Below, in pieces: positions 52,336 to 55,137 of a DNA stretch of 64,000 bases. A program made the position numbers and the translations under genes. Under the pieces are notes generated by a model that saw only the letters and a list, made by a program, of their open reading frames with translations, did no database searches and was not told where the DNA came from. Source of the DNA: an archaeon. Its GTDB lineage: Archaea > Nanobdellota > Nanobdellia > Woesearchaeales > UBA9642. Within the stretch, counting starts at the first letter, position 1, and every line of letters starts with the position of its first letter. Location: positions 96,001 to 160,000 of the forward strand of contig JAGVGF010000001.1 in the NCBI GenBank assembly GCA_020057295.1, in the 5' to 3' direction.

Positions 52336-52848
52336 TCATCTCATATAATTTCTAATCTGTTGATCCATAGACAATAATCTCGTACCAACATATTTCATTG
52401 CATTGCCTATTCCATCAGTATTTAATGTTTCAAAGAATCTGAATGAAATTATTGCTAAACGCCATCCTGACTTTCTTAATTGTTCAAGTCTTTGCAGTTC
52501 ATCTCTGTCAATTAATCTTATGTTCGCTTCTTTTGCTCTTAACTTAACTTTTTCATCAAAATATCTGTTAGTAACCATTTCACCAAGATATGTTGGAATG
52601 TTAAAAGTTTTTAATGTAGTTTCAAATTTAGAATAATCATCAAACGTCACATTACTATGAGAACGATATTTACATTCAACATATTTTCTTAATATTGGAT
52701 CTTTATATGTTACATCTATCTGTCCATTAGCTGATTCTTCACCATTAGTCTTTTTAACTCTATGATCTATCTTTACATCCCTATATCCTAAATCCTTATA
52801 TAATTCCGATACAAATATTTCAAGTCCTGAACCCTTATTTTTAATCAT
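52336..52848 (-). CDS. Mrr-like PD-(D/E)xK restriction endonuclease domain protein
   Basis: LEIFVSELYKDLGY, QIDV, VECKY, MVTNRYF and IRLIDRDEL. Confidence 0.85.
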   Translation of the reverse strand: MIKNKGSGLEIFVSELYKDLGYRDVKIDHRVKKTNGEESANGQIDVTYKDPILRKYVECKYRSHSNVTFDDYSKFETTLKTFNIPTYLGEMVTNRYFDEKVKLRAKEANIRLIDRDELQRLEQLRKSGWRLAIISFRFFETLNTDGIGNAMKYVGTRLLSMDQQIRNYMR

Positions 52849-52849
52849 A

Positions 52850-53107
52850 TTACTCCATAAAATGTTTAGATAAGAAAGATTCGTAAAGTACTGAATGTGA
52901 TTCAATATCTTTTACATGTAACTTACGTGCATAATCTATTATACTATTATATTCCTTGTTTTTTTCATAAACTAACTCTATAAAGAATCCATGCGGAATA
53001 ACATATAAAGAATTCACAAAGATATTATGTTTCAAATACTCCTTTAACGTATCATAATCAAAATCTTCATTATCAATAGTTATTATAACAAAAGCCTTCT
53101 TCACCAT
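52850..53107 (-). CDS. small protein, possibly an Lrp/AsnC RAM-like domain
   Basis: KAFVIITI start and ferredoxin-like beta/alpha pattern; coupled to the nuclease gene. Confidence 0.5.
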   Translation of the reverse strand: MVKKAFVIITIDNEDFDYDTLKEYLKHNIFVNSLYVIPHGFFIELVYEKNKEYNSIIDYARKLHVKDIESHSVLYESFLSKHFME

Positions 53108-54239: not shown

Positions 54240-54280
54240 TTTCTTAAAATTAAAATATGAGCGCGTGAGGATTTGAACCC
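54240..54280. repeat. left copy of a 41-bp imperfect direct repeat (right copy 54987..55027)
   Basis: 35/41 identical by manual alignment. Confidence 0.8.
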
Positions 54281-54292
54281 CACTTCTCTCAC
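54258..54292 (-). pseudogene. orphan tRNA 3' half (T-arm and acceptor 3' strand)
   Basis: GTGAG-AGAAG-TGGGG-TTCAAAT-CCTCA-CGCGCTC-A; no 5' half adjacent. Confidence 0.7.
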
Positions 54293-54357
54293 TGGACATT
54301 TGCTCGTGAAGCATATAAATGAAATCATCCAACCATTTAGTGTGAGATGATTTATTT

Positions 54358-55023
54358 ATGAAAGCTTCACATATCAACAATGTCAAAATTGATGAAGACA
54401 TCGCATATCTAATTGGTGTTCTACAATCTGACGGATGCATTTATGAATTCTATGATAAGAAACGAAATAGATTGCACATAAGATTAAATTTAGGCGTAGG
54501 GAAAAATTCTTTACCAATGTCTGAAAAATTTAAACAGACACTTAAAAAATCGCTAAACATCACCGTTAATATTAGAAAAGCTCCTTCAGCTAAGAATGCG
54601 TATGTAATACAAACATCAATCAATAGAACAGCAGAAATATTTAGAGAATGGAAGAAAGAAGAGTTAAATAACGAGATAAGTCAAAATATAAAATTATTTG
54701 GCGCATACTTAGCAGGTTTAATAGATGGTGACGGACATATAAAAGTAAAACACAATAATGATCGTAAAATTCCACAATGCATTATAAAAATAGCAGAAGA
54801 TAGGCCTATGAAGACTTTGCAACAACTTTTATATAAGTTCTTTAATTGTAAATCATATTTCGAGAAACATAACAATAGTAAATGCGTAGAAACATGCTTC
54901 TATATATCAAAGAAAAACATCGATACATTCTATAAATATGTTTACCCGCATGTTACTATTAAACATAAAGTAGAAAGATTAGATTGTTTCTTAAAATTAA
55001 AAAGTGAGCACTGCAGGATTTGA
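54358..55023 (+). CDS. two-motif LAGLIDADG homing endonuclease, free-standing
   Basis: AYLIGVLQSDG and AYLAGLIDGDG; no intein splice motifs. Confidence 0.92.
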   Translation: MKASHINNVKIDEDIAYLIGVLQSDGCIYEFYDKKRNRLHIRLNLGVGKNSLPMSEKFKQTLKKSLNITVNIRKAPSAKNAYVIQTSINRTAEIFREWKKEELNNEISQNIKLFGAYLAGLIDGDGHIKVKHNNDRKIPQCIIKIAEDRPMKTLQQLLYKFFNCKSYFEKHNNSKCVETCFYISKKNIDTFYKYVYPHVTIKHKVERLDCFLKLKSEHCRI

Positions 55024-55079
55024 ACCCGCGGTCTCCCGGTCCGAAGCCGGGCGTTTTATCCAAACTAAACTAAGTGCCC
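55005..55079 (-). tRNA. tRNA-Arg(UCG)
   Basis: GGGCACT...CCCGG-CT-TCG-GA-CCGGG...GCGGG-TTCAAAT-CCTGC-AGTGCTC-A. Confidence 0.95.
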
Positions 55080-55137
55080 ATTCTAACAATATAGATATAT
55101 CTATAGTTTAAATAATTGTTGTTTCCAAAGAAAAAAC

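Follow-up and report, generated by a model that had tools for sequence, protein, structure and literature searches.

The LAGLIDADG endonuclease gene described here is probably a free-standing homing cassette, of the kind that replaces the end of its host gene, living at the tRNA-Arg(UCG) gene. The window (the whole stretch of 64,000 nucleotides that was analysed) encodes a working tRNA-Arg(UCG), an endonuclease open reading frame (ORF) that runs into it from the opposite strand and, beyond the promoter-like signals of the endonuclease, an orphan tRNA 3' end. The features of the locus are as follows.

54240-54280 and 54987-55027: direct repeat of 41 nt (35/41 identical, 85%) that flanks the endonuclease ORF
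54240-54257, minus strand: flank part of the left repeat copy, with 16 bases identical to the antisense FLKLK codons
54258-54285, minus strand: displaced tRNA-Arg(UCG) 3' fragment, comprising the variable-loop end, T-arm, acceptor 3' strand and discriminator
54290-54298, plus strand: conserved motif CACTGGACA, some 14 nt ahead of the endonuclease TATA-like box
54313-54320, plus strand: TATA-like box of the endonuclease gene (putative promoter, from reading the sequence), with its position kept in related loci
54358-55023, plus strand: LAGLIDADG endonuclease ORF, 221 aa (ORF list and Pfam)
54987-55027, minus strand: right repeat copy, comprising the oligo-T flank and the working tRNA 3' end
55004-55079, minus strand: tRNA-Arg(UCG), working copy (ARAGORN: tRNA-Arg(tcg))
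55106-55114, minus strand: TATA-like box (putative tRNA promoter, on the host side) some 30 nt upstream of the gene, with similar boxes in related loci

The tRNA, the ORF and the 41-nt repeat of the original prediction were all recovered at these coordinates using ARAGORN, Rfam, Pfam and a repeat search. The tRNA gene covers the full Rfam tRNA model (65.5 bits, 55005-55079, minus strand) and is the single tRNA-Arg(UCG) gene in the 1.2-Mb genome, which belongs to a tiny DPANN archaeon. It is uninterrupted, and no intron family was identified at threshold by Rfam in the window locus. The endonuclease ORF is free-standing, with a start codon and promoter-like signals of its own, and lies outside the tRNA and antisense to it. 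Its C-terminal residues are ...FLKLKSEHCRI, and it ends antisense inside the T-arm. Conservation across the family extends to about residue 215, and the final codons plus the stop derive from the antisense tRNA. The ORF tails cover the antisense T-loop, and each of the three reading frames is used. Thus, the overlap of ORF and tRNA is positional, not coding. The interval between the repeats holds the endonuclease and its promoter and nothing else, and no integrase or recombinase was identified among 15 neighbouring ORFs scanned (43.5 to 55.4 kb). The predicted free-standing, integrase-free unit at a tRNA 3' end is thus borne out.

The direct repeat is the top repeat family within 2.3 kb, and across the 1.2-Mb genome its copies match only each other beyond T-loop hits of 12-13 nt. 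Clustering of the six mismatches in the central 12 bp, as originally described, was also confirmed (positions 17, 18, 24, 26, 27 and 28, a span of 12 nt). They split evenly between the sequence immediately beyond the tRNA end, the 3' strand of the acceptor and the 3' strand of the T-stem, with two in each. In the flank, the 16 identical bases double as the oligo-T tract right behind the tRNA, and a string matching the flank of the left copy also directly follows the working tRNA, both in the window and in G008. Homing in one simple step would not account for this 16-nt flank identity.

In the left copy, the tRNA-like part exceeds the repeat by 5 nt and retains its own compensating T-stem 5' strand. 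It matches the working tRNA-Arg gene of G009, a congener without the endonuclease, at positions 47-74 (28/28 identical, E = 2.3e-8), and it is therefore a displaced native-type 3' end rather than a recoded decoy. The original prediction, in which the left copy is a recoded tRNA end, is thus reversed: the left copy is the old native-type end, and the differing version sits in the working tRNA. Comparison with eight congeners that lack the endonuclease shows that the T-stem and acceptor pairs of the working tRNA are unlike the native type and that the changes are compensated; its variable loop differs as well. The 5' part of the working tRNA also departs from the native type and resembles the L062 tRNA; thus, a breakpoint inside the tRNA cannot be placed.

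Remnants of displaced ends are present in only 5 of the 23 clade loci with enough sequence (the window, G004, L066, L073 and L025), and the other loci show none; gene-end replacement thus has support in a minority of the clade. The flanking repeats that had been predicted are real in the window; as a constant feature of the family they do not hold. Remnant junctions occur at tRNA positions of about 46-58. The G004 remnant is of a different native type that resembles the G006 tRNA end. In G009, which has no endonuclease, 19 nt of the tRNA end recur exactly at a distance of 71 nt downstream, and this is possibly a scar. We also considered, and rejected, the orphan as a second, split, permuted or intron-bearing tRNA. 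The genome contains no 5' acceptor half that would match it, nothing was called at the orphan by ARAGORN (introns allowed) or Rfam, and the hairpin upstream of it is not kept in G004 or G008.

The protein matches Pfam LAGLIDADG_3 (1.2e-11) and LAGLIDADG_1 (9e-8). The catalytic residues Asp25 and Asp125, one acidic residue per LAGLIDADG helix, are invariant across 26 aligned sequences. The AlphaFold model (pLDDT 92.3, pTM 0.90) has E-DreI (3e-10), PI-PfuI and I-DmoI as its best Foldseek matches, and the enzyme is predicted to be a single-chain, two-motif LAGLIDADG protein with a pseudo-dimeric alpha-beta-beta-alpha-beta-beta-alpha fold. Values of dN/dS are 0.06-0.13, with synonymous sites near saturation; the gene is under purifying selection.

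Among 66 distinct proteins, 24 relatives form a clade (SH-aLRT 99 in a quick IQ-TREE tree), and all 24 are encoded beside tRNA-Arg(UCG). This link was established for 22 of them by a pattern test (background of 16 hits in 251,546 nt) and judged by reading for the other two. Convergent orientation is seen in 22/24; measured from residue 215, the 3' end of the tRNA that the gene abuts lies at about -4 to +7 nt. For some linked tRNAs, ARAGORN returned Pro, Leu, Ser or SeC. These calls were discarded as miscalls caused by introns; the anticodon loop reads Arg(UCG). No integrase was found near clade members in the stretches read. Collecting and tabulating homologs thus reveals a strong enrichment at tRNA genes, as anticipated. 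Homing at tRNA ends in general, as first proposed, is too broad a description: the clade is specific to Arg(UCG), and distant branches of the family are at other tRNAs.

The endonuclease gene is patchily distributed. It occurs in 3/13 genomes of the genus (G000, G004 and G008), each time at the Alba-tRNA-Arg locus, and in 8/61 relatives (E <= 0.001). The Alba gene is present in 12/13 genus genomes, and tRNA-Arg(tcg) adjoins it in 11 of these 12 loci. The filled metagenome locus L062 and the empty site of G007 have both flanking genes in common. Orthologous sites thus occur with and without the gene, which supports the original prediction. Among the sequencing runs listed as matching the locus, none was of RNA. 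Metagenomic DNA from groundwater (four runs, which hold at most 0.10 of the query words) yielded fragments of relatives, including one 477-nt contig of a relative that joins 54285 to 55036. This contig is the sole read-level joint and is too weak to serve as an empty allele of the host organism.

Divergence at the DNA level among endonuclease copies (68-77%) and in the Alba flank (76-85%) ranks similarly, so phylogenetic incongruence gives no verdict on transfer. With divergence roughly following the flanks and synonymous positions almost saturated, long vertical inheritance combined with repeated loss accounts for the patchiness about as well as recent transfer does. One rival view takes the gene as a long-standing inhabitant of the tRNA-Arg locus that is passed on vertically, may have been domesticated (e.g., as a DNA- or RNA-binding helper for this tRNA gene) and has disappeared from most lineages, with the repeat resulting from local duplication or gene conversion rather than from invasion. 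The strong purifying selection over saturated synonymous divergence fits such a history, as do the divergence roughly parallel to the host flanks, the position fixed beside one tRNA through a deep clade and a promoter of host regulon type. Nonetheless, we regard it as unlikely. The presence of the gene in only 3/13 congeners and 8/61 relatives indicates that it is not essential, and both catalytic Asp residues are invariant. Further, the orphan is of a type unlike the working tRNA yet identical to the gene of a congener, which local duplication of the resident gene does not yield, and the G004 remnant is of yet another type.

The homing cassette reading also draws on the linked tRNA genes themselves, many of which have non-canonical insertions in the variable-loop/T-arm zone, newly seen here. 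An insertion between the variable loop and the T-loop is present in 10/22 linked and 0/23 unlinked tRNA genes, and the discriminator is G in 15/22 linked and 2/23 unlinked genes; sampling of taxa is uneven between the two sets, and related genomes do not count as independent. The window tRNA-Arg has no insertion. RNA folding indicates that the L025 and L027 insertions can form a 4-bp helix and a 3-nt bulge beside the T-stem. Similarity of the T-arm insertions to the left end of the cassette, compared by eye, is too weak for them to be leftovers of it. Deviation from an NGGGG/CCTCN T-stem distinguishes 2/3 linked from 0/8 unlinked genes of the genus, a small contrast. T-stem diversity marks linked alleles in the genus only, and T-stems of unlinked genes at the order level vary too; thus, we do not use it as strong evidence.

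This T-stem variety in unlinked genes would fit an endonuclease that homes to a target other than the tRNA body, with the spot after the terminator serving as a safe harbour and the tRNA differences representing ordinary divergence. The position of the junction beyond the tRNA, in flanking sequence at a distance of about 0-7 nt (at most 16-18 nt), is also compatible with this. However, a safe harbour would not favour one isoacceptor across a 24-member clade, orphan T-arm fragments are not expected from it, and the insertions in the variable-loop/T-arm zone (10/22 linked versus 0/23 unlinked) are left unexplained, so we judge it improbable. It is highly improbable that the repeats bound a decayed element of the integrase type (SSV or pNOB8 style) at the tRNA-Arg 3' end, with the endonuclease as its left-over cargo: direct duplication of a tRNA 3' end together with its flank is the classic signature of such integration (PMC3293823), and G009 has a short tRNA-end repeat with no gene between its copies, but the copies in the window differ at six clustered positions rather than sharing an identical att core, there is no third repeat copy in the genome and no integrase or recombinase in the 15 scanned ORFs, the interval encodes the endonuclease and its promoter only, and the minimal gene-tRNA pair recurs in 24/24 clade members with no integrase in the stretches read.

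The promoter of the cassette has an upstream motif, CACTGGACA, that is exact in 14/23 clade loci and present with at most one mismatch in 17/23. The host genome contains five copies, all linked to TATA boxes, and the composite element has 61 matches across 13/13 genus genomes (none for the reversed control). The motif also occurs at the promoters of RadA, Hef and primase, an observation that is new here. We rejected the motif as a tRNA remnant or homing half-site because it occurs at other promoters, both in the genome and across the genus.

For the homing cassette at tRNA-Arg(UCG), we propose the following route. The endonuclease would be expressed from its own promoter, with an upstream element common to host recombination and repair genes. 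Its targets would be cassette-free tRNA-Arg(UCG) genes, with cleavage most likely within the variable-loop/T-arm segment. The break may then be repaired by recombination off a cassette-bearing copy, with the endonuclease gene and the adjoining 3' part of the tRNA copied in. The far side of the repair in the window lineage may have been joined illegitimately, at a 5-nt AAGTG overlap, and the recipient's own tRNA 3' end would have become the orphan fragment beyond the endonuclease promoter. The working tRNA would stay whole, and compensated changes in its variable loop, T-stem and acceptor would protect it from cleavage. Its oligo-T terminator would be encoded antisense by the Lys-rich tail of the endonuclease.

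A bolder reading, which we put forward as a tentative whole, has three parts. Endonuclease attack on the variable-loop/T-arm segment may shape the architecture of tRNA-Arg(UCG) in DPANN archaea, selecting for compensated stem swaps, discriminator changes and non-canonical introns placed exactly in the target zone, with orphan ends as debris. Target-zone introns may hitch-hike with the endonuclease, in a version of collaborative homing that involves protein-spliced introns. Unrelated LAGLIDADG cassettes may be plugged into a host recombination and repair regulon (RadA, Hef, primase and a Cas4-like nuclease) via a common ORB-like element upstream of the TATA box. If so, the nuclease would be made together with the repair machinery that it needs.

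Archaeal tRNA genes are often interrupted or fragmented and have oddly placed introns, a long-standing puzzle for which integrating viruses and plasmids are the usual suspects. A family of free-standing homing endonucleases that dwells at one tRNA gene would be a concrete and testable agent of tRNA disruption. Displaced tRNA ends are found beside some of its members, and insertions in the linked tRNA genes fall exactly where the remnant junctions fall. The endonucleases would also represent new long-site nucleases with a defined and highly conserved natural target, and the common promoter element would offer a starting point for the study of a DNA-repair regulon in DPANN archaea that are uncultured.

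The endonuclease resembles archaeal single-chain LAGLIDADG enzymes such as I-DmoI and the endonuclease domain of PI-PfuI in its two-domain fold (TM 0.6-0.74) and in having one acidic residue per LAGLIDADG helix. Unlike these enzymes, which are found in rRNA introns and inteins, it is free-standing beside a tRNA, and sequence identity is just 15-22%. A search of titles and the first parts of abstracts turned up no description of a free-standing LAGLIDADG gene located at a tRNA gene in archaea. The model described for disruption of tRNA-Thr in Caldiarchaeum involves an inserted element that displaces a tRNA fragment, with the reconstituted tRNA adjoining it, as a route to disrupted tRNAs (PMC3293823). 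The element in that model encodes a recombinase, whereas the locus described here has no integrase and its repeats are not identical; the word LAGLIDADG is absent from that paper.

Collaborative homing has been described for F-CphI, encoded beside an intron-containing psbA gene in cyanophage S-PM2, where the intron blocks self-cleavage and can travel along (PMC6083498). Here, too, a free-standing enzyme is encoded beside its putative target, and the insertions in 10/22 linked tRNA-Arg genes may parallel the blocking intron. In contrast to that system, the window tRNA has no intron, and the insertions in relatives would be spliced by proteins, as in archaea, rather than being group I introns. 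SegB of phage T4 is a free-standing GIY-YIG endonuclease encoded among tRNA genes, with a 27-bp site that holds a conserved T-stem-loop motif (PMC2330249). The likeness lies in an endonuclease gene located among tRNA genes and inherited with neighbouring tRNA sequence. SegB differs in nuclease family and phage context, it cuts several tRNA genes rather than one isoacceptor, and its abstract describes no duplicated tRNA end (PMC2330249).

Together with SegB, the mORFs of fungal mitochondria are close precedents, and the original view of the cassette as an undescribed kind of system is thus not upheld. The mORFs are described from atp6 of Allomyces macrogynus and from atp6, atp9, cox2 and nad3 of Glomus (PMC3630166). 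A foreign 3' gene end comes in with the ORF and is fused to the gene body, and the native end persists downstream of the ORF as unexpressed sequence; the native end clusters with relatives, unlike the inserted one (PMC3630166). The cassette shares with these elements a free-standing LAGLIDADG gene (mORFs may also be of the GIY-YIG family) and a displaced native end beyond the ORF. It differs in that its host is an archaeal chromosomal tRNA gene rather than a mitochondrial protein-coding gene, the ORF runs on the strand opposite to its host gene, synonymous recoding is replaced by compensated stem changes, and the orphan end is found in a minority of the family.

The tRNA-Arg(UCG) gene of this genome (G000; 1.2 Mb, 31% G+C, six contigs, with the window part of contig C4) is the only one of its kind among 42 ARAGORN tRNA calls. 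Convergent with it lies a single-copy LAGLIDADG endonuclease gene that, with its promoter, forms what we term the cassette. The features of the locus, in window positions, are:

54240-54280 and 54987-55027, direct: 41-nt repeat, 35/41 identical, the top family in the repeat search
54290-54298: promoter motif CACTGGACA, 14 nt upstream of the TATA-like box
54313-54320: TATA-like box of the endonuclease gene, upstream of the ORF
54358-55023, forward: LAGLIDADG ORF, 221 aa (LAGLIDADG_3, 1.2e-11; LAGLIDADG_1, 9e-8)
55004-55079, reverse: tRNA-Arg(tcg), called by ARAGORN and matched by Rfam at 65.5 bits over the whole model

The final 20 nt of the endonuclease ORF overlap the tRNA in antisense, placing the stop codon within the T-loop. 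The six repeat mismatches fall at repeat positions 17, 18, 24, 26, 27 and 28, and the two copies are each other's sole match across the whole genome. The original prediction had described this ORF ending antisense in tRNA-Arg(UCG), and the imperfect repeat, at these same coordinates and without intron or integrase. All of this is confirmed: no intron family was matched at the tRNA-Arg locus in an Rfam scan, and a domain scan found no integrase among the 15 neighbouring ORFs. These encode Alba, a DUF2569 protein, an Mrr-like nuclease, IleRS, LGT, a NYN protein, a methyltransferase and products without assignment. Amid small unassigned ORFs, 1.3 kb from the cassette, is a 189-aa Mrr_cat/Card1-like protein of restriction-endonuclease fold (52336-52905, reverse strand). 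Genome-wide, ARAGORN reported no Arg(GCG/ACG), Ser(GCT), Gly(CCC), Pro(GGG/CGG), Gln(CTG) or Thr(GGT/CGT) tRNA and made several doubtful intron calls; some genes were probably missed owing to non-canonical introns.

A word-indexed search identified 45 homologs, and a profile-based search against 1.84 billion representatives returned 115 at E<=1e-30, 180 at <=1e-10 and 2123 at <=1e-3. Loci were retrieved from genomes (39) and metagenomes (66); the 80 with near-full matches were analysed, and 25 were left out as short or weak (L060, L099, L105-L126 and similar). Including the window, the dataset comprises 66 distinct proteins. In a quick IQ-TREE tree the window protein sits in a clade of 24 rows (SH-aLRT 99). 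Tabulated against tRNA genes, homologs are enriched there, in line with the earlier proposal of a unit that homes at tRNA 3' ends: tRNA-Arg(UCG) adjoins all 24 rows. The tRNA was called in 22 by a pattern combining anticodon loop and T-loop, at no more than 300 nt (background, 16 matches in 251,546 nt outside the tested zones) and, less certainly, in L026 and L076 by reading intron-split versions. Endonuclease and tRNA genes converge in 22 of the 24, where the distance between the tRNA 3' end and the codon matching residue 215 in the alignment is about -4 to +7 nt; in the other two the tRNA lies downstream on the same strand. In a neighbouring group of eight Micrarchaeota rows, tRNA-Arg(UCG) is divergent and on the opposite side, and more distant rows abut tRNA-His (six rows), Val, Leu, Gly or Phe, or no tRNA was seen. 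Antisense T-loop sequence is read by the family's ORF tails in each of the three frames (...RI stop, GFEP, DSNP), which indicates that the overlap is positional rather than coding. The conserved protein tail F-L/F-x-L/M-K is the antisense of an oligo-T run just after the tRNA.

Presence of the gene is patchy among relatives. Alba was detected in 12 of the 13 genus genomes and tRNA-Arg(tcg) adjoins it in 11 of these 12 loci; synteny among congeners is absent in the stretch downstream of tRNA-Arg. The endonuclease was detected in 8/61 relatives at E<=0.001. Strong matches are limited to G008 (68% identity) and G004 (59%), both convergent with and abutting tRNA-Arg(tcg) beside Alba, so that 3/13 genus genomes carry the gene. 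A filled and an empty site of the kind that the original prediction had looked for in relatives were found: metagenome locus L062 (filled; protein 75% identical) and the endonuclease-free congener G007 have both flanks in common. Their Alba sides are 76% identical over 1581 nt, and on the other side an orthologous 438-aa gene begins, in G007, 54 nt past the tRNA and, in L062, about 90 nt past the cassette. Locus L061 has the same flanks plus one additional 159-aa ORF.

One candidate reading of the left repeat copy (54240-54280), as half of a tRNA that is split, permuted or interrupted by an intron, is rejected as the genome has no acceptor-matching 5' half; neither ARAGORN with introns nor Rfam called a tRNA gene there. 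With the tRNA-Arg of the endonuclease-free congener G009 as query, BLAST gave two matches in the window: the working tRNA-Arg at 82% over 64 nt, and 54258-54285 (reverse strand), identical to G009 tRNA positions 47-74 (100%, 28/28, E 2.3e-8). The G007 tRNA end differs from this orphan fragment by one base. On the strength of this comparison with congeners, the left copy is the displaced 3' end of the tRNA type found in endonuclease-free relatives. It retains its T-stem 5' strand, which pairs with the fragment's own 3' strand. The original prediction had the unit carry a recoded tRNA end; it is the working gene and not the left copy that deviates, with every stem change compensated by the partner base in the Rfam alignment. 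G000 and G009 share about 76% identity in their flanks, and a neutral 28-mer displaced before these genomes split would, roughly, have remained unchanged with a chance of ~0.88^28 = 0.03. Since this is improbable, displacement may have been fairly recent, or the fragment refreshed by conversion.

Comparable debris occurs elsewhere. In G004, a remnant of a tRNA end lies past the endonuclease promoter; it is of a type unlike the window's, and its final 13 nt match the tRNA end of congener G006 and not G004's own working tRNA; G008 has merely a degenerate stretch at this position. In G009 (locus L012, ~1983-2075) an exact 19-nt repeat of the tRNA-Arg 3' end lies 71 nt downstream, with no ORF between, and may be a scar of cassette loss.

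The cut zone probably lies at about tRNA positions 46-60, because three independent features agree: remnant junctions, insertions and the discriminator base. In the window, the remnant junction falls where variable loop and T-stem meet, and native tRNA and promoter-side sequence overlap there by 5 nt (AAGTG). The G004 junction is within the 5' strand of the T-stem, L066, L025 and L073 have theirs at the start of the T-loop, and the G009 repeat begins inside the T-loop. Among 22 linked (endonuclease-adjoining) convergent tRNA-Arg genes, five, the window's included, have no insertion, six have solely an anticodon-loop intron, one has a D-loop intron, six are interrupted at the variable-loop/T-stem border and four inside the T-arm. 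Thus, 10/22 linked genes have an insertion in this zone versus 0/23 unlinked tRNA-Arg(UCG) genes of relatives, and 15/22 versus 2/23 have discriminator G, in sets that differ in taxon sampling and include kin that are not independent. Introns occur in 2/23 unlinked genes (one canonical, one D-loop). The T-stem varies in unlinked genes too at order level; within the genus it is NGGGG/CCTCN in 8/8 unlinked genes, and the second pair is swapped in 2/3 linked ones (window and G008). The tRNA-Arg(UCG) genes of L024-L027, with T-arm insertions (at the T-stem 5' strand/T-loop boundary or inside the T-loop) plus other introns, were wholly undetected by ARAGORN.

The predicted endonuclease looks active. 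Asp25 and Asp125, one per LAGLIDADG helix, are invariant in a 26-sequence alignment, from which a structure model was obtained (pLDDT 92.3, pTM 0.90). Its best solved-structure matches are E-DreI (3e-10), PI-PfuI and I-DmoI (TM up to 0.74 on target). Values of dN/dS against the copies of L062, L061 and G004 are 0.06-0.13, rough because synonymous sites are near saturation.

We propose that the endonuclease would cut tRNA-Arg(UCG) genes that lack the cassette, within the variable-loop/T-arm zone. RadA-dependent repair off the filled allele would copy the endonuclease gene and adjoining tRNA sequence; in cases where the far side lacks homology, it would be closed by microhomology joining, leaving the recipient's 3' end as an orphan fragment. 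The resident allele would escape via compensated changes and, in relatives, possibly via insertions in the zone (compare collaborative homing, as outlined in PMC6083498). The mechanism does not account for the orphan fragment's 16-nt flank, which is identical to the endonuclease's last codons. The G007 flank resembles the last codons of the L062 gene over 11-14 nt, and these likenesses suggest earlier rounds of gain and loss, although low-complexity T-runs could mislead. Vertical descent with losses, or domestication, is an unlikely alternative reading of the parallel between endonuclease divergence (68-77% DNA identity) and flank divergence (76-85%), as it leaves foreign-type orphan ends unexplained. 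That tRNA genes are mere safe harbours for insertion is more doubtful still, explaining neither the isoacceptor specificity nor the T-arm debris. A decayed integrase element is very improbable, as no integrase was found among the 15 neighbouring ORFs, nor any identical repeats or larger element.

The cassette's promoter is of a recurrent type. An SD-like stretch also precedes the ORF, and CACTGGACA is exact in 14/23 and within one mismatch in 17/23 clade loci having at least 100 nt upstream. The 9-mer complement of CACTGGACA has five copies in G000, all about 14 nt from a TATA-like box, which precede the endonuclease, a second, unrelated LAGLIDADG gene (C2:65175-65816) abutting tRNA-Trp, PriS-PriL primase, a Hef-like helicase-nuclease, and a 100-aa gene followed by RadA. 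The second LAGLIDADG gene (locus C2:65175-65893, outside the window; 213 aa, PF14528 at 32.5 bits, CACTGGACA-TATA promoter) is convergent with tRNA-Trp(cca), 3 nt from the tRNA 3' end; inspection showed no tRNA remnant next to this gene. A composite pattern, combining a TATA-like box with TGTCCAGTG ~14-15 nt away on the other strand, has 61 matches across 13/13 genus genomes versus none for a reversed control, with sites at G000 C1:17792-17821, C5:11548-11577 and C5:73774-73803, window 54290-54320 and loci L157-L186. Inspection of 30 of the 61, with Pfam run on 10 proteins, identified a PD-(D/E)XK Cas4/Dna2-like nuclease, a DEAD helicase, Bro-N and ORF6N proteins, a radical-SAM protein with helix-hairpin-helix motifs, Rad51/RadA and another LAGLIDADG protein; several LAGLIDADG genes are preceded by the pattern. 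In some loci the motif extends as ...CCAGTGGAAA, resembling a Pyrococcus mini-ORB instance, 'TTCCAGTGGAACT', given in PMC1904270; as the TTCC core is not preserved, this likeness is no more than a lead. The signature, which is faintly ORB-like, is a candidate element of a DNA-repair regulon, and we infer that the cassette would be expressed alongside host recombination and repair genes. In congener G003 the signature has 17 copies, several with nearly identical 30-mers, and a 1101-aa open frame contains a weak LAGLIDADG match; cassettes, or another element with the same promoter, may have expanded in this genome.

Literature searches at listing level turned up no account of a cassette like this at an archaeal tRNA gene. 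In architecture the cassette is a tRNA counterpart of fungal mitochondrial mORFs, described in PMC3630166 as a LAGLIDADG or GIY-YIG ORF inserted with a gene end, the native end remaining downstream. In its presumed target choice it is similar to T4 SegB, a free-standing endonuclease encoded within a tRNA cluster, for which PMC2330249 gives a 27-bp recognition sequence including a conserved T-stem-loop motif. The cassette may also bear on the origin of disrupted archaeal tRNA genes: the Caldiarchaeum tRNA-disruption model invokes a recombinase, with no mention of LAGLIDADG (PMC3293823), whereas the window's cassette has no recombinase and encodes a LAGLIDADG endonuclease instead.
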